64,000 nucleotides of DNA from Shigella phage SF1-1: sequence record PQ571307, one strand, 5' to 3'. This document shows, one piece after another, positions 41,102 through 49,513 of this stretch. The notes under the pieces are model-generated. The model had not been told where the DNA came from. It saw nothing but the letters and a program-made list of their open reading frames with translations, and ran no database searches. Position numbers and translations under genes: made by a program. Position 1 is the stretch's first letter, and each line of letters begins with the position of its first letter.

Positions 41102-41434
41102 GATAATCTCCTCTCATCGTTAGCCATCTTTCATGGCAATCATCAATCACCAACATCATACGATCAATCTCAGGGAATTACAATCGAATTATCATAGGGG
41201 ATTCCTATCAATTATCCCATATATACCGATTATTTTTGACACCCCACTCTTGTATAAAAAGTAACCCAAAATATCTACGGGGAGAGATTATTTCGACACA
41301 CCCTGTTTCATGGCAATCATGGCAAGAATATCTAATAGAATCAATATCATATGGCAAAAATCATGGCGCATACGTAAGAAGTGCTTAACGCGAATTTTCG
41401 GGCCGTCAGGTCCACGCAGCGACAATTCCCAAAT

Positions 41435-41463
41435 ATCATGAGAATGAGAATAATTATCATTCG
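41435..41463. promoter_or_regulatory. Fur-box-like AT-rich palindromic motif (copy 1)
   Basis: ATGAGAATGAGAATAATTATCATTCG, about 13 of 19 matches to GATAATGATAATCATTATC. Confidence 0.25.
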
Positions 41464-41621
41464 TATTCAATGACTTATGCAAGGCTTATGCCAACGTAGC
41501 GACAAAGTGGGCCACTTGATTATAAATCACACAAACACTTATTTATCAATGGTTTGGCAACTTCATCATATGACGGAACATTGTCAACTGATCCCGCTCA
41601 TAACAAGCAGACTATTATTTA

Positions 41622-41643
41622 TATGAGAATGATTATTATTTAA
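41622..41643. promoter_or_regulatory. Fur-box-like motif (copy 2)
   Basis: ATGAGAATGATTATTATTTAA. Confidence 0.2.
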
Positions 41644-42683
41644 ACGTTTATTAACATAAAAACTAAAATAAATCAAGAATTTTCTGATTTTATTTACGTT
41701 TAAGAGAAGATGCTCAACATATCGCTACGCGATAGTATTCGCCCCCGTAATATTTGCTCTTTTCTTAGTGCTCAACATTCCCGCCCGTGGCGGTAACATT
41801 TCGCCCCCAAAATTATTGACTTTTATTCTATTATGTGCACACTATGCAACCTGTCGCTACCGACCGCCCTCCGGTCGGGGTAGCATCGCGCTATTCGCTC
41901 ATGTTGCTACGTGCAATTATTCATCTTGCTAATGATTTCATATTGTAACCATTACAATGATTATTGTTATTGCGCTAATGTTATGATCTTGGTAATTACA
42001 TATAATGCTAATAATAAGCCAGCGCAATAAGTGTAAGCGTAATTACGCTTGCAATTATTGCAAGCTACGCAATAACAAGAAATAACCGTCACCGATGGTT
42101 ATGATTGTTGGGGTGTAGTTGGCTTATTATTAGCTCGCTATGTGTCCGGCATAGCGTGCTAATGATGACTCTGTGAATGATTCGTTTTGTAATGATTTCA
42201 TTCAGGCACTATTTTGCTAATAGTTATTATTTTAATGGTTTCGTTTGTTATTGTTCGTTAGTTGGTTGTTTTGTCGTGTTATCGTTATCTTGCTTAGTAT
42301 TCATCATGGTTTGATTGTTTGTTGTTATCAATCATCTTGCTATTATTCCTTTGATTATGATTAGTTTGCTTATTGTTTTATGTTGTTTGTTGGTTAGTTG
42401 TTGCGAACTATTATCAACATGATAGTTATGCGCTTATATTGCATAGATAATCATGGGTAGATGATAATGGTTATCATTGCACTAGAAAGGAGGTAAAAAG
42501 GTGTTTTTGATGGTTTGTTGTTGGTTGTTGATCGATTTTAACCGCTATAAATGGCTCTCTAACAGCCTGTTGCCCTGGGGTGTATGGTTATTCGTTTAAT
42601 GGCTGATTAGCTCGATACCGCGATTTATTCAATTTTATTCTGTGTCGGTTTTTCATAGGCGAAAGCTATCAACATTGTTCGGG

Positions 42684-42711
42684 CAAAAAGAAAGGGCGCT
42701 TGGTGCGCCCT
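42684..42711 (-). terminator. rho-independent terminator (minus strand)
   Basis: Minus strand reads AGGGCGC-accaa-GCGCCCT followed by TTCTTTTT, directly after the 42727 stop. Confidence 0.6.
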
Positions 42712-42726
42712 GGTATGAAATGTTGT

Positions 42727-43110
42727 TTATTGATAAGCTGGATCGTTTGTTATATCAATCCAATGAGCTAAATTAATTTTATTTTTTGCTTTCATTTTCT
42801 CGATCAAACGTTCGGCTAATGTTTCTGAACGAATATAAACGTTTTCGCTAAAATCTTGCCCCGTTTCTTCGTCGATCATCTCACGATATTCGATTTTTCC
42901 GATAAACGCGTGATTCAGCGCATAAGTTTTACCCGTGTACCAGTTATGTAAATGGATCTCACATTTATAATCATCGCTATACCCTTCGGTTGTTCTAACT
43001 TCAACCAGGTCGCCTTTAAACACTGATAAGCACCACATAGGATCACGGTCTACAGCGCCGTTAAAGTCTTTACCGTTTACAGTCGCTGCCAGGTTGATGA
43101 TATTGCTCAT
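42727..43110 (-). CDS. hypothetical protein
   Basis: Preceded by a promoter/stem-loop cassette; higher GC than the surrounding blocks. Confidence 0.5.
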   Translation of the reverse strand: MSNIINLAATVNGKDFNGAVDRDPMWCLSVFKGDLVEVRTTEGYSDDYKCEIHLHNWYTGKTYALNHAFIGKIEYREMIDEETGQDFSENVYIRSETLAERLIEKMKAKNKINLAHWIDITNDPAYQ

Positions 43111-43130
43111 CGTGTAATCCTCTCGTTTGC

Positions 43131-43192
43131 TTTGGGAACTATTCCCGCCGCCCTATGAATTAAATATACACTATCTCAAAATGATTGCAAGC
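43131..43192 (-). repeat. promoter + GC stem-loop cassette (PeSL-like) 1
   Basis: Minus strand: TTGCAA, 16 bp, TATATT, 10 bp, GGGAA-tag-TTCCC palindrome, RBS, ATG. Confidence 0.55.
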
Positions 43193-43207
43193 CTTTTTCT
43201 AAATTAT

Positions 43208-43492
43208 TTATGCAGTAAACAAACCATCATTTACAACGGCGGCGATGATCTCCCGCGCCATTGATTCAGGGAACGGGTCGCTATAGTCCTGGCTTGTCTC
43301 GTCGCTGTCTGTTATCCAATGATAAGCCAACGAGTAAAAGCCTTTACTGCTTGTTTTCAGTGATATGATGATCACACGATCAAGCCCATCGGTAAACGTT
43401 GCCGTTAATGTGCTATCATCTTGCATCGTGCCGGACAAATAAGCGGCATCATTAACCATGGAAAACATTAGCACGGTGTTAGCTTTACGCAT
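43208..43492 (-). CDS. hypothetical protein
   Basis: Preceded by a GGGCGC-atcaa-GCGCCC hairpin; likely co-transcribed with the upstream small gene. Confidence 0.45.
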   Translation of the reverse strand: MRKANTVLMFSMVNDAAYLSGTMQDDSTLTATFTDGLDRVIIISLKTSSKGFYSLAYHWITDSDETSQDYSDPFPESMAREIIAAVVNDGLFTA

Positions 43493-43534
43493 GATTTCAT
43501 CCTCAAAGGGGGCGCTTGATGCGCCCTTGTTATG

Positions 43535-43681
43535 TTAATCCTCTAAATCTGTCCAATTGTATTTGTCACTCTTCCCGCGCTTTGTTTTATTACGCTTGTC
43601 GCCTTTTCGGATCACTTCCTCATTCCAGGCCTTACGGATCTTGGAAGATTGAATTTTTTCTGCGCGATTAAATGTATTCAT
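43535..43681 (-). CDS. hypothetical small basic protein (48 aa)
   Basis: ATG after AGAGGAAACA directly downstream of a cassette; not in the ORF track. Confidence 0.35.
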   Translation of the reverse strand: MNTFNRAEKIQSSKIRKAWNEEVIRKGDKRNKTKRGKSDKYNWTDLED

Positions 43682-43692
43682 TTTGTTTCCTC

Positions 43693-43755
43693 TTTATATG
43701 AGCGGCACCATTGCCGCTATATTGTTAATTTAAGTTATTTTGTAAAATTGCCAAG
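43693..43755 (-). repeat. PeSL-like cassette 2
   Basis: TTGGCAA ... TATAGC then GCGGCA-atgg-TGCCGC hairpin. Confidence 0.45.
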
Positions 43756-48165: not shown

Positions 48166-48171
48166 TCTACC

Positions 48172-48238
48172 ACCTTACAAATAGCGGGAACTATTCCCGC
48201 TTTATGTAACATATTAACAAATTATTCGTTAATGTCAA
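48172..48238 (-). repeat. PeSL-like cassette 12
   Basis: TTGACA ... TAATATGTTACATAAA ... GCGGGAA-tag-TTCCCGC. Confidence 0.55.
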
Positions 48239-48241
48239 ACC

Positions 48242-48514
48242 TTAAAGCAAAAACGCTACATCTTGCGCTTTTAGTGTAGTATCAACCATTTTCGGGCTTT
48301 TATAATCCACAAAGCGCGCGGTTTTTTCAATAGCAAAACCGAGATAATCTTGTTTATTGAATTTACATTCTTTCTTAAATGTTTCCCGCGCCACGGTGAT
48401 CGCTGCGTCCAGGGATAAACGCCCGTCAATGTTGATATTTGCGAAAGATCCGCCACCGCTCACAGGTTTACCAGTGGTGCCAGCTACGATCATTGTTGCG
48501 CTATATGATGCCAT
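48242..48514 (-). CDS. hypothetical protein
   Basis: Internal ATG (track ORF start runs into the upstream cassette). Confidence 0.45.
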   Translation of the reverse strand: MASYSATMIVAGTTGKPVSGGGSFANINIDGRLSLDAAITVARETFKKECKFNKQDYLGFAIEKTARFVDYKSPKMVDTTLKAQDVAFLL

Positions 48515-48537
48515 GATTATAATCTCTCTTCTGTTGT

Positions 48538-48600
48538 GAGCGGCTGGACCATTCCGCCGCCCTATGTGATACATCTTATCAGGTTGTTGGTTGTTGTCAA
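48538..48600 (-). repeat. PeSL-like cassette 13
   Basis: TTGACA ... TAAGATGTATCACATAGGG ... GGCGG-N-CCGCC hairpin. Confidence 0.5.
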
Positions 48601-48606
48601 TACTTT

Positions 48607-48804
48607 TTATTCTATTCCTGCAATCTGATTAACGCGTTTGCATTTTGTAGCGTGCTGGTCTTCTGTAATTACTCCCATTTCTAACAGTGAATCAATGAAA
48701 GATAAAACCGTTTCATAATCATCCTGGGGATGACTGAACTCAGTAAAACCGTTTACTACCACGTTTATTTGTCCAGCTTTCGCCACAATGTGCAATGTCG
48801 CCAT
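48607..48804 (-). CDS. hypothetical protein
   Basis: Internal ATG after TGGAG (track ORF start runs into the cassette). Confidence 0.45.
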   Translation of the reverse strand: MATLHIVAKAGQINVVVNGFTEFSHPQDDYETVLSFIDSLLEMGVITEDQHATKCKRVNQIAGIE

Positions 48805-48817
48805 GATTTTAACTCCA

Positions 48818-48890
48818 AATAATGAGCGGCACCATTGCCGCCCTACGTGGTAAATATTATGCCGCCACCTGGCGAACGTCAATCGCTTTT
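48818..48890 (-). repeat. PeSL-like cassette 14
   Basis: TTGACG, 17 bp, TAATAT, 11 bp, GGCGGCAA-tgg-TGCCGC, then TGGAG RBS and ATG. Confidence 0.55.
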
Positions 48891-48991
48891 TCAATCTTTT
48901 TTATTTTCTTTTTGCTTGCTATATATAAAGGAAAGGGCTATCATCTTTCTACCGCGCCAACCAGGGCGCACAACAAAGAAAGGGCGACACC

Positions 48992-49264
48992 ATGACAAAT
49001 ACTACATTACACCTTATGCACTCATTGGGCTGGCAAGGCGGCACCGTTCACCAGGTAGCAAGCCATACAGGGTTAACCGTGATGGAAGTCCTAGACTTAC
49101 ACACTTTCCCAATATCAAATGTTATAGCCCACGGACACGGCTTAAAGGCGGTAAAAATGTGTGTAGTGGATATATGCGGCGCAGCCTATTCAACGTGTGG
49201 TTATAAACCGGATCGGATCTCCTTTTGGCGTGGCGTCTTGGACGCACAAAATGTGCAAAAATAA
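48992..49264 (+). CDS. hypothetical protein (uncertain)
   Basis: 90-aa plus-strand ORF in a GC-richer segment; weak RBS. Confidence 0.25.
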   Translation: MTNTTLHLMHSLGWQGGTVHQVASHTGLTVMEVLDLHTFPISNVIAHGHGLKAVKMCVVDICGAAYSTCGYKPDRISFWRGVLDAQNVQK

Positions 49265-49266
49265 TG

Positions 49267-49296
49267 TTGACAACCTGGCGTAAGCTGGGCTAAACT
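49267..49296 (+). promoter_or_regulatory. sigma70-like promoter with no downstream ORF
   Basis: TTGACA, about 17 bp, TAAACT, followed by about 700 bp without ORFs. Confidence 0.35.
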
Positions 49297-49513
49297 GTAC
49301 CCATACAGAAGAGTAAACGCCACCCCACGGCGTAAAGGCGGGGCTAACATACCAGGGCGCTGGTTGGAAGGTTGATCGCCGGTAGGCTGGGCGCTATATA
49401 TTTGTAAAGAAATGTAAAGATAAAATAATCGCTTGCTTTCCTGGCTGGATCTGTTATTCTTATTACATGGCGAGGGGACACGGGAGCGCGAGACAAACAC
49501 CGCCCCTGCGCGT

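Follow-up and report, generated by a model that had tools for sequence, protein, structure and literature searches.

How a block of small genes comes to differ in composition from the rest of a phage genome, between two long stretches free of open reading frames (ORFs), is the question raised by positions 41102-49500 of a 64,000-nucleotide stretch of Shigella phage SF1-1 (record PQ571307), hereafter the window. The original prediction had seen there a horizontally acquired or rapidly exchanging module rather than core genome. The source phage is a Phapecoctavirus, a phAPEC8-like E. coli myophage of the Stephanstirmvirinae. Taking demonstrated and deduced elements together, we consider it very probable that the segment is a hyperplastic early-gene region adjoining the physical genome end of this phAPEC8-like phage.

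The two ORF-free borders

A single gene-calling rule applied over the whole window ranked 41102-42726 (1625 nt) and 49265-50068 (804 nt) as its two largest gene gaps; the third-largest measures 385 nt and the median 12 nt. The predicted bounding by unusually long non-coding stretches is thus borne out. The end coordinate 49500 needs correction, as it falls within the non-coding DNA on the right; the first promoter of the leftward array, at 48882, marks where that array stops. Both stretches lack annotation in more than 50 relatives, a few records giving 'hypothetical proteins'. They are conserved within the genus at about 91-98% (the right one at about 97-99%), better than the array between them. 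Rather than scars left by an insertion, the borders are conserved and functional; they form the fixed ends of the array, a putative genome terminus on the left and a control region on the right.

We regard it as very unlikely that these stretches are hidden small genes or assembly artefacts. Short ORFs of 45-99 codons do exist in addition to the few annotated hypothetical proteins, but the same sequence recurs in dozens of independent assemblies and its conservation is accounted for by repeats, palindromes and promoters. The conserved part of the right stretch contains non-triplet indels and has no 3-periodic substitution pattern. In relatives, indels that are not multiples of three interrupt the sole long ORF of this stretch (49201-49500, minus strand), and Schickermooser has this ORF annotated as frameshifted.

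The left border contains the following features.

41102-41386: non-coding stretch separating the terminal repeat from 40727-41101, the first gene of a long leftward operon
41183 to 41155, minus strand: likely promoter of the leftward operon (TTGTAA, 17 nt, TATGAT)
41387-41714: counterpart of the 328-bp direct terminal repeat, a single collapsed copy in the permuted sequence
41443-41461 and 41622-41640: Fur-box-like palindromes inside the terminal-repeat counterpart
41715-42726: terminus-proximal non-coding DNA with GC-rich short repeats
42245-42530: GT-rich repeats
42460-42478: third palindrome of the left border

The first 328 nt of Mt1B1_P17 are identical to its last 328 nt, as are the first and last 329 nt of Schickermooser, and both terminal repeats map to 41387-41714 with 96-98% identity. 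A 328-bp repeat has been reported (PMC6563267). Homology to these two relatives places the putative physical genome ends at 41387-41714; judged from sequence, the left stretch combines this 328-bp direct terminal repeat with cis-acting DNA.

The right border follows a small rightward gene and is organised as a control region.

48992-49264, plus strand: g18 (90 aa), lying before the control region with synteny kept across two subfamilies
49267-49296, plus strand: P1, predicted promoter (TTGACA at 49267, 18 nt, TAAACT ending at 49296)
about 49303-49390, plus strand: conserved non-coding element A, after P1
from 49401, plus strand: TGTAAAGA doublet, before P2
49433-49460, plus strand: P2, promoter-like (TTGCTT 49433-49438, 16 nt, TATTCT 49455-49460)
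about 49467-49520, plus strand: conserved element B, after P2
49523, 49552, 49581 and 49610 (block 49523-49628): four tandem 19-bp Fur-box-like palindromes, spaced by exactly 29 bp
49641-49893: AT-rich block, 24-30% GC
49641-49712 and 49779-49850: two 72-nt direct repeats in the AT-rich block
49859-49867 and 49882-49890: two TTGAGATAA motifs, resembling T5 'direct repeat A'
49987-50013: hairpin whose two strands each carry T-runs, a probable bidirectional terminator
50069-50611, minus strand: NADAR gene, with the hairpin at 49987-50013 downstream of it

Element A is near-invariant over Stephanstirmvirinae and Vequintavirinae, has one covarying pair (GC in seven sequences, AU in six) and found no match in Rfam; for element B there is a weak indication of structure. 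The g18 allele present here shares only 37-48% protein identity with other phapecoctavirus alleles. The layout of the right stretch resembles the promoter-dependent origins of T4 and T7. It could be a replication origin, with priming or activating promoters, tandem protein sites and an AT-rich unwinding element, that the array merely abuts. Two predicted rightward promoters directed against all neighbouring genes, and behind them four palindromes at regular intervals and repeats of 24-30% GC, would suit such a function, as would conservation at about 97-99% in the genus and partly across subfamilies. However, neither ORF-free stretch contains a DnaA box (TTWTNCACA; four in the window versus 11.3 expected by chance), and GC skew at the right stretch tracks transcription direction. 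In T5, the equivalent palindromes are distant from the origins that have been mapped (Davison, bioRxiv 10.1101/866236), which also counts against an origin. We consider this possible but doubtful and retain the reading of the stretch as a control region.

The palindrome, AATGAGAAT-N-ATT(A/C)TCATT, fits the 7-1-7 Fur motif TGATAATnATTATCA with one or two mismatches. Allowing up to two mismatches, the Fur consensus gave eight matches where 0.81 were expected, and the two ORF-free stretches account for five of the eight. All seven sites of the phage-derived palindrome lie in these stretches, against 0.41 matches expected. The perfect palindrome occurs at 120 or more exact sites in diverse bacterial genomes, and every adjoining ORF scanned against Pfam (9/9) falls in a family of iron or metal uptake. 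We view the palindromes as candidate operators for Fur, the iron-responsive repressor.

Promoter and stem-loop units of the array

Between the borders lie 17 small genes, all transcribed leftward.

42711 to 42693, minus strand: intrinsic terminator with which the array ends
42727-43110, minus strand: g1, homologue of T4 gp30.8 (PF06019)
43208-43492, minus strand: g2, small protein, cassette
43535-43681, minus strand: g3, small protein, cassette
43761-44114, minus strand: g4, small protein, cassette
44193-44414, minus strand: g5, small protein, cassette
44489-44656, minus strand: g6, small protein, cassette
44748-44960, minus strand: g7, small protein that varies or is lacking among relatives, with 84% identity to a gene of the jumbo phage phAPEC6
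45051-45278, minus strand: g8, cassette
45369-45608, minus strand: g9, relatives' alleles 74-85% identical; 82% identical to a gene in a jumbo-phage terminal repeat
45609-46451, minus strand: insertion carrying g10 and g11, missing from 9/9 relatives examined
45651-45697 and 46409-46455: 47-nt promoter repeats flanking g10 and g11
45700-46056, minus strand: g10, GNAT acetyltransferase, 92% identical to a gene of Asteriusvirus phAPEC6
46134-46364, minus strand: g11, 90% identical to a gene within the vB_Ec-M-J terminal repeat
46452-46835, minus strand: g12, cassette, shared backbone
46906-47268, minus strand: g13, cassette, missing in nepoznato
47355-47915, minus strand: g14, cassette, shared backbone
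47908-48165, minus strand: g15, cassette, shared backbone
48242-48514, minus strand: g16, cassette, shared backbone
48607-48804, minus strand: g17, cassette, shared backbone
48882 to 48854, minus strand: most upstream array promoter
43754, 44189, 44742, 45041, 45359, 45687, 46445, 46899, 47351, 48238, 48600 and 48882, minus strand: starts of the -35 hexamers of the promoter units

Twelve promoter plus 5' stem-loop units were identified at 43726-48882 on the minus strand, the promoter preceding 12-13 of the 17 genes. Each unit runs from a stop codon through an A-rich stretch, a TTGACA-type -35 hexamer, 16-18 nt, TAnnnT, 7-12 nt, a GC-rich hairpin (-9 to -17 kcal/mol) and a purine-rich Shine-Dalgarno sequence to the ATG. 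The window holds 13 such units, all but one of which fall within 43.7-48.9 kb on the minus strand. No U-run follows the array hairpins, and they are therefore not canonical intrinsic terminators. At least 12 genes appear to be self-contained expression cassettes, each with a predicted sigma-70 promoter, a GC-rich stem-loop at the putative transcript start and a ribosome-binding site. Consensus matches suggest promoter activity and 'early' timing. The array genes would then be early host-takeover or accessory genes transcribed by host RNA polymerase, and the 5' hairpin would damp read-through and shield the mRNA 5' end.

Composition and exchange among relatives

The GC content of the array (42727-49264) is 40.4% versus 38.65% for the window, within the top ~1% of equal-sized windows but only 1.7 points higher overall. 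Pooled GC3 is 0.398 versus 0.316 (per-gene Mann-Whitney p=1.4e-4), and the codon-usage distance of the array is 0.138 versus 0.080 +/- 0.009 in random flank gene sets, of which 0/1000 reach the array value. Array intergenic GC is 38.5%, so the intergenic stem-loops are not the cause of the shift. The spread of GC among genes is twice that seen elsewhere (SD 0.049 versus 0.025), with individual array genes ranging from 30 to 47%. At the level of observation the original prediction is partly confirmed: in addition to the ORF-free stretches, the GC-richer composition and G/C-rich codons are real, if small in effect, while the 'AT-rich flanks' describe the non-coding borders (37.0% and 35.7% GC) and not the coding flanks (38.5-39.8%). 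This composition signal is weak and alone would not prove exchange.

The shift might instead be adaptive, with immediate-early genes tuned to host codon usage because their translation precedes phage tRNAs and other phage functions, and with variability incidental. GC3 is higher in E. coli than in the phage, the predicted promoters are host-type, and the shift is present in all arrays examined, GC3 being 0.41-0.43 in four other phapecoctaviruses. In contrast, GC3 is an unshifted 0.328 in the adjacent leftward run of small genes (23-41 kb), and the doubled per-gene dispersion of the array also speaks against adaptation. The cassette arrays of two phage lineages moreover converge at ~40-42% GC irrespective of the remaining genome GC (in a jumbo phage, 40.5% versus 33.7% in the neighbouring genes), and they have genes in common at ~90% identity. 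We judge adaptation unlikely as the full account, and selection for expression rather than gene origin could explain the GC3 shift in part. On the preferred reading, the GC3-richer, heterogeneous composition would derive from a common cassette pool with its own composition.

Comparison with relatives supported a rapidly exchanging module. None of 225 records covers at least 80% of 41000-50100 (best 77%), whereas 60/127 and 32/126 records do so for equal-length flanks. The gene content of the array differs among all relatives, with g1, g7, g9, g10, g11 and g13 present, absent or replaced across nine of them (g1 was found in only two of the eight with the position covered), and its size is 6.6 kb here versus about 7-12 kb in relatives. 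The locus itself was always present and its position identical in every relative examined, and a backbone of g3-g5, g12 and g14-g17 is common to 9/9 at 82-100% DNA identity; the locus is not one acquired island.

Homology breakpoints cluster at the promoter/stem-loop linkers. Of 37 distinct breakpoints, 22 are intergenic although intergenic DNA makes up 21.7% of the array (p=7e-7), an enrichment that could be inflated because breakpoints were taken as BLAST block ends, which favour diverged DNA. The g10-g11 insertion is edged by the promoter repeats. Linker-to-linker recombination would shuffle cassettes while each gene stays expressible and transcriptionally insulated. Gene content varies at 23-41 kb in the left flank as well, where the best coverage is 95% and such cassettes are lacking, so variability does not depend on linkers.

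Sequence identity to genes of Asteriusvirus jumbo phages shows horizontal acquisition for single cassettes, g10 (92%) and g11 (90%). The promoters around the GNAT gene g10 are swapped relative to phAPEC6, an arrangement compatible with a circular intermediate but no proof of one. Acquisition as predicted thus stands for individual cassettes and fails for the array as one island. A classical genomic island, inserted by a single transfer between two non-coding scars, would explain the deviating GC3 and codon usage and the long non-coding borders, but it is extremely improbable. Every relative examined has the same locus and borders, with the backbone common to all nine; GC varies from gene to gene; and conservation is higher in the borders than in the array. 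No tRNA was found, no integrase-like or recombinase domain occurs in the ten largest ORFs, and absence of the whole block was not seen in relatives. The same three results count against an integron-like cassette array.

Comparison with known systems

The 19-bp palindromes resemble bacterial Fur boxes in matching the consensus and in that the same sequence stands beside iron- and metal-uptake genes. They differ in lying in non-coding DNA of the genome end and control region of a lytic phage, and in forming a four-site array with 29-bp spacing that does not overlap one host promoter.

The first-step-transfer (pre-early) region of T5 likewise places small host-promoter-driven genes beside a genome end, partly transcribed toward that end, and its inner border is a large, highly conserved untranslated region (Repeat Region 3/injection stop signal). 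There, 'direct repeat C' and palindromes E, G, H and I lie at 9468-9637 (Davison, bioRxiv 10.1101/866236; AY587007 annotation). Both phages have the same 19-bp palindrome in tandem, window positions 49577-49607 and T5 9573-9603 being identical at 30/31 positions, with TTGAGATAA repeats ('direct repeat A') further inward. In contrast to T5, whose ~10-kb terminal repeat carries the pre-early genes, the repeat here is 328 bp and without genes, and palindromes also lie within it. T5 has paired DnaA boxes in inverted repeats, which are missing here, and is without promoter plus stem-loop cassettes. A tblastn search with the full set of 17 T5 terminal-repeat proteins, A1, A2 and dmp included, returned no hit in the window or the compared loci.

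The Asteriusvirus jumbo phages vB_Ec-M-J, fEgEco12 and phAPEC6 have the same kind of cassette, 19 units in a 26-kb stretch including the repeat. Their arrays are terminus-associated and similar in composition, and five cassettes are common at 70-92% identity. The matching genes sit in an annotated 21.5-kb terminal repeat, and a ~21-kb terminal repeat has been experimentally confirmed in a related phage (PMC13070987). These phages nevertheless belong to an unrelated lineage with a genome 2.5 times larger, their array is enclosed in the long terminal repeat, their stems have another consensus (GGGGAGAA...), and the 26 kb of Asteriusvirus DNA examined contains no Fur-box palindromes.

The cassettes also resemble the PeSL (promoter-early stem-loops) cassettes that T4-type phages carry in their hyperplastic regions (Arbiol et al. 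2010, PMC2839356; Comeau et al. 2014, PMC4122927). In both, each small ORF has in front of it a consensus sigma-70 promoter, preceded by an A-rich stretch and adjoined by a stem-loop with G/C tracts, and gene content varies between close relatives through indels or replacements bounded by repeated regulatory units; g1 is itself a T4 gp30.8 homologue. The present phage is a Phapecoctavirus (Stephanstirmvirinae) outside the T4 group, and its array is a single terminus-adjoining block, whereas PeSLs occupy several regions between core modules. Here the -10 hexamer is always followed, after 7-12 nt, by the stem-loop, which would thus be transcribed as the mRNA 5' end. In RB49 and phi1 it takes five positions, mostly between or over the hexamers, of which the array described here represents one positional subclass.

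Cassette anatomy and exchange

A megablast search with positions 41000-50100 returned 225 phage records, the best of which were Escherichia phages of the genus Phapecoctavirus (92-96% identity), phAPEC8-like members of the Stephanstirmvirinae with genomes of about 150 kb. Four records labelled 'Campylobacter phage' (MG065639, MG065645, MG065650 and MG065661) share 94-97% DNA identity with Phapecoctavirus and rV5-like phages, and their host labels look doubtful. The array consists of 17 small minus-strand genes (g1-g17, 42727-48804) and is closed by a terminator at 42711-42693. 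Gene g1 encodes a homologue of T4 gp30.8 (PF06019) and g10 a small GNAT acetyltransferase; for the remaining genes the only matches were to PHROGs of unknown function. Read along the coding strand, the spacers follow a common plan, in which the stop codon is followed by an A-rich stretch, a TTGACA-type -35 element, 16-18 nt, TAnnnT, a further 7-12 nt, a GC-rich hairpin (for example GGCGGGAAGTGGTTTCCCGCC), a purine-rich Shine-Dalgarno sequence and the ATG. A pattern search of the window found 13 such promoter-then-hairpin units in 64 kb, 12 of them at 43.7-48.9 kb on the minus strand, with hairpins of -9 to -17 kcal/mol. Because they have no trailing U-run, these hairpins are not canonical intrinsic terminators; each would instead form the first nucleotides of its mRNA. 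Stem-loops at the 5' terminus are known to affect message stability in E. coli, and the array hairpins could likewise stabilise their messages.

Three queries of equal length (9101 nt each) were compared for coverage. No record among 225 covered at least 80% of the island (best 77%), compared with 60 of 127 for the right flank (best 100%) and 32 of 126 for the left flank (best 95%). Coordinates put the two conserved borders 6.6 kb apart in this phage and about 7.3-12 kb apart in 26 relatives, making this array the shortest seen. Comparison of the array genes with nine relatives revealed a collinear backbone (g3-g5, g12 and g14-g17) present in all nine at 82-100% identity. Other cassettes vary: g1 occurs in two of the eight relatives compared as far as that end of the array, some of the nine lack g7 and some lack g13, g9 exists as alleles at 74-85%, and g10 and g11 occur in none. 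The g10-g11 insertion is edged by two copies of a 47-nt promoter segment (45651-45697 and 46409-46455), both of which align to the lone promoter at the anhysbys empty site. In twelve comparisons, 22 of 37 distinct homology breakpoints were intergenic, although intergenic DNA makes up 21.7% of the array (binomial p = 7e-7; the ends of BLAST blocks are attracted to diverged DNA), and several further breakpoints lie a few bases from gene ends.

The GNAT gene is 91-96% identical to a gene of Asteriusvirus jumbo phages, whose genomes are about 350 kb; among the matches listed for the g10 half of the query, none was a phapecoctavirus. Direct comparison identified five shared cassettes (g10 at 92%, g11 at 90%, g7 at 84%, g9 at 82% and g13 at 70%). 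In the jumbo phage vB_Ec-M-J the shared genes lie within an annotated 21.5-kb direct terminal repeat of about 53 small genes, and in fEgEco12 a 21-kb repeat has been confirmed by restriction mapping (PMC13070987). A 26-kb jumbo-phage stretch including the terminal repeat contains 19 promoter and stem-loop units of this kind; the T5 terminal repeat contains none. The promoter downstream of g10 (45650-45696) is 89% identical to that upstream of the gene in phAPEC6. Swapped promoters of this kind are what a circular intermediate opened elsewhere would give, an arrangement that is suggestive only. Coverage, the cassette matrix, the breakpoints and the cassettes in common with jumbo phages all support the original prediction of a rapidly exchanging, horizontally fed module.

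Composition of the array

The array was also described as GC-richer than its surroundings. The difference is present and modest in size: the array is at 40.4% and the window at 38.65%, which places the array within the highest ~1% of windows of its size. Codon use differs as well: pooled GC3 is 0.398 in the array and 0.316 in the other genes (Mann-Whitney per gene, p = 1.4e-4), and the codon-usage distance between the two sets is 0.138, a value reached by none of 1000 random sets of flank genes (0.080 +/- 0.009). Individual array genes range from 29.6 to 47.1% GC, with a standard deviation of 0.049 compared with 0.025 elsewhere. GC-rich hairpins were rejected as the source of the excess, since array intergenic DNA is 38.5% GC and thus below the coding DNA. 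As for the proposed AT-rich flanks, AT-richness is confined to the non-coding borders (37.0 and 35.7% GC, falling to 24-30% at 49.55-49.85 kb). The arrays of four other phapecoctaviruses have a GC content of 41.6-42.0% and GC3 of 0.41-0.43. The jumbo-phage array is 40.5% GC, compared with 33.7% in neighbouring genes outside the repeat; the genome of the related jumbo phage fEgEco12 is 35.8% GC (PMC13070987). Arrays are therefore alike in GC across carriers of differing GC, indicating that cassette composition is independent of the carrier, and this is the best support for the compositional argument.

Along the window, GC skew changes sign at about 23.2 kb and about 56 kb. The coding strand is plus at 1-23 kb, minus at 23-56 kb and plus at 56-64 kb, and this coincidence indicates that skew tracks the direction of transcription in this phage.

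The two gene-free borders

Gene calling over the whole window with one rule (ORFs of 50 or more codons that begin with ATG and lie on the strand dominant locally) confirmed the long non-coding bounds on both sides. The largest gene gap is 41102-42726 (1625 nt) and the second largest 49265-50068 (804 nt), followed by one of 385 nt, with a median of 12 nt. More than 50 independently annotated relatives have no annotated feature under either stretch. No tRNA was found in the window, and no Rfam family reached its gathering score; neither ORF-free stretch gave a credible Rfam hit, and the right one had no match even at permissive thresholds. The island had been drawn to end at 49500 on account of a 99-codon minus-strand ORF (49201-49500), which is annotated as frameshifted in one relative and is broken by non-triplet indels in cross-genus alignment.

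The left stretch corresponds to a genome end in relatives. The terminal repeat of phage Schickermooser is 328 bp (Korf et al., PMC6563267); the first 329 nt of its record equal the last 329, as do the first and last 328 of Mt1B1_P17. Both repeats map to 41387-41714 at 96-98% identity, and a third record begins at about 41395. By homology, this places the physical genome end of the present phage at 41387-41714, which the permuted sequence would show collapsed to a single copy. Mt1B1_P17 has the same orientation as the window, and read this way the linear DNA begins at 41387. The array would then occupy its first ~7.5 kb and be transcribed toward the end, with the right ORF-free stretch 7.9-8.7 kb in. 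We considered the whole 8.4 kb as a T5-like long terminal repeat and rejected this, as the repeat is 328 bp. Elsewhere in the left border, 41715-42200 is the least conserved piece (85-97%), and 42245-42530 contains GT-rich short repeats (TTGTTGGTTGTTG-like) with three longer copies about 130 nt apart.

Within the genus, identity over the right stretch is 97-99%. For its first ~280 nt, conservation extends at 70-88% identity to Justusliebigvirus and to four genera of the Vequintavirinae, in which coding DNA cannot be aligned at that level. The features of the stretch are listed below from left to right.

Features of the right ORF-free stretch and its neighbour
49267-49296, plus strand: predicted promoter P1, preceding the near-invariant element A of about 90 nt
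49303-49390: element A, conserved non-coding DNA behind P1
Between element A and P2: TGTAAAGA doublet
Plus strand, preceding element B: promoter-like sequence P2
49467-49520: element B, conserved non-coding DNA behind P2
49523-49628: four 19-bp palindromes spaced exactly 29 bp
Block of 24-30% GC: two 72-nt repeats and two TTGAGATAA motifs
Downstream of the NADAR gene: hairpin flanked on each side by a T-run

Elements A and B are kept across two subfamilies far better than the surrounding genes. The predicted hairpin of element A has one clearly covarying pair (G-C in seven sequences, A-U in six, broken in none) and a loop of variable length. Element B was rejected as a structured RNA, its consensus fold being weak (-4 kcal/mol). 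The borders are conserved cis-acting DNA and not marks of insertion. In the viral contig IMGVR_UViG_2974574029_000001, an HNH-type homing endonuclease gene directly follows element A and, as far as the sequence was read, takes the place of element B and the palindromes.

Gene g18 (48992-49264, plus strand) keeps its position before P1 across subfamilies. At the protein level it is only 37-48% identical to the alleles of other phapecoctaviruses, against 97-98% for the DNA on either side, a pattern suggestive of sharp allele replacement. By eye, a helix-turn-helix-like stretch can be made out in g18; the gene was rejected as a recognisable DNA-binding protein, having no Pfam family and no significant PDB match. 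Directly on the other side of the control region lies the NADAR-domain gene (50069-50611, minus strand), of which the genus has two alleles, at 88% and at 98-99% identity.

Fur-type palindromes and comparison with T5 and PeSL cassettes

The window has seven copies of the palindrome AATGAGAAT-N-ATT(A/C)TCATT, all within the two ORF-free stretches.

Palindrome sites in the window
41443-41461 and 41622-41640: inside the terminal repeat
42460-42478: left stretch
49523, 49552, 49581 and 49610: right stretch

Counting both strands, this amounts to 14 matches where 0.41 are expected by chance. The same seven sites, and no others, recur at like positions in each of the nine phapecoctaviruses examined, and genera beyond Phapecoctavirus have one to four palindromes after element B. 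The palindrome differs from the 7-1-7 consensus of the iron regulator Fur by one or two mismatches. In bacterial genomes the perfect palindrome occurs at no fewer than 120 sites, compared with an estimated chance number of about 9 (596e9 / 4^18). We inspected fourteen of these and, for nine, scanned the ORF beginning beside the site against Pfam; all nine ORFs belong to iron- or metal-uptake families, namely a FecI-type sigma factor, Bfd, FeoA (twice), a siderophore-type ABC ATPase, a periplasmic binding protein, ZnuA/TroA, a P19 Fe2+ transporter and a TonB-dependent receptor. The fit to the consensus and this bacterial context identify the palindromes as consensus-type Fur boxes, which E. coli Fur would be expected to bind. 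Searched by BLAST against 5426 E. coli genomes, the Fur-box array had matches at chance level only; in viral contigs, going by the matches listed, the Fur box is not rare. A possible third promoter (49549-49578, plus strand; TTGAAT, 18 nt, TAAACT) lies within the Fur-box array and points toward the AT-rich repeats; if real, it would be an obvious target of Fur repression.

Distant BLAST matches of the right stretch include T5-like phages. The counterparts of the palindrome in T5 (AY587007) are copies 1-4 of 'direct repeat C' and palindromes E, G, H and I (9468-9637), and positions 49577-49607 match T5 9573-9603 at 30 of 31 positions. These T5 repeats likewise have consensus Fur-box sequence. 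As in this phage, a TTGAGATAA-type repeat, 'direct repeat A', lies further in. Palindrome D of T5 (9330-9349, TACTGTATAAATATACAGTA) fits the LexA-box pattern CTGT-N8-ACAG, so that the T5 untranslated region looks like a collection of sites for host proteins: DnaA, LexA-like and Fur-like. The T5 repeats are part of the untranslated Repeat Region 3, where the injection stop signal is believed to lie, and the stop of first-step transfer has been calculated at 9618 (Davison, bioRxiv 10.1101/866236), within palindrome I (9612-9631). In the literature searched we found no mention of the T5 repeats as Fur boxes or of their presence in rV5/phAPEC8-like phages; the rV5 paper has just a 'non-coding' box on its map.

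A T5-like pre-early region that enters the cell first, or an iron-dependent switch, is in our view an improbable reading of the Fur-box arrays. The differences from T5 are large. The terminal repeat is 328 bp here and 10 kb in T5, and a search for the T5 pre-early proteins A1, A2 and dmp found no homologues in the window or the loci compared with it. A promoter-dependent replication origin is a fair alternative for the right stretch. Elements A and B, behind the sigma-70-like P1 and P2, are candidate small RNAs or origin transcripts; DnaA boxes, sought as in T5, were found in neither ORF-free stretch. Were the entry or iron-switch reading true, the tandem Fur boxes at the array border and the two in the terminal repeat would be a functional signal common to unrelated phage groups, the rV5/phAPEC8-like myoviruses and T5-like siphoviruses. 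DNA entry would then be paused or gated by host Fur bound to the array or, alternatively, early transcription or replication would depend on iron status. The position of the T5 stop inside a palindrome would point to Fur, not DnaA, as the host factor acting at the T5 injection stop signal, which has long gone unexplained. The Fur-box identity offers a concrete candidate host factor for cis elements unexplained since the 1980s.

No prior description of the present array, or of a link between it and T5, was found in the literature searched. It has the defining sequence features of the promoter-early stem-loop (PeSL) cassettes of T4-type hyperplastic regions (PMC2839356, PMC4122927), whose promoter/stem-loop linkers are proposed to act as recombination handles for plug-in genes, and would work alike. 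Sharing of cassettes between Stephanstirmvirinae and Asteriusvirus is documented here, and it suggests that early genes ready for expression circulate among unrelated coliphages as a common pool. Anti-defence and host-takeover functions could sensibly be sought in such a pool, which also bears on how the stability of therapeutic phages is judged. The PeSL idea extends from T4-type phages to two further lineages, the 150-kb Stephanstirmvirinae and the 350-kb Asteriusvirus. In contrast to the cassettes of T4-type phages, those described here belong to a different phage lineage, keep a fixed order in which the promoter always precedes the 5' stem-loop, and form a single block adjoining the genome terminus.
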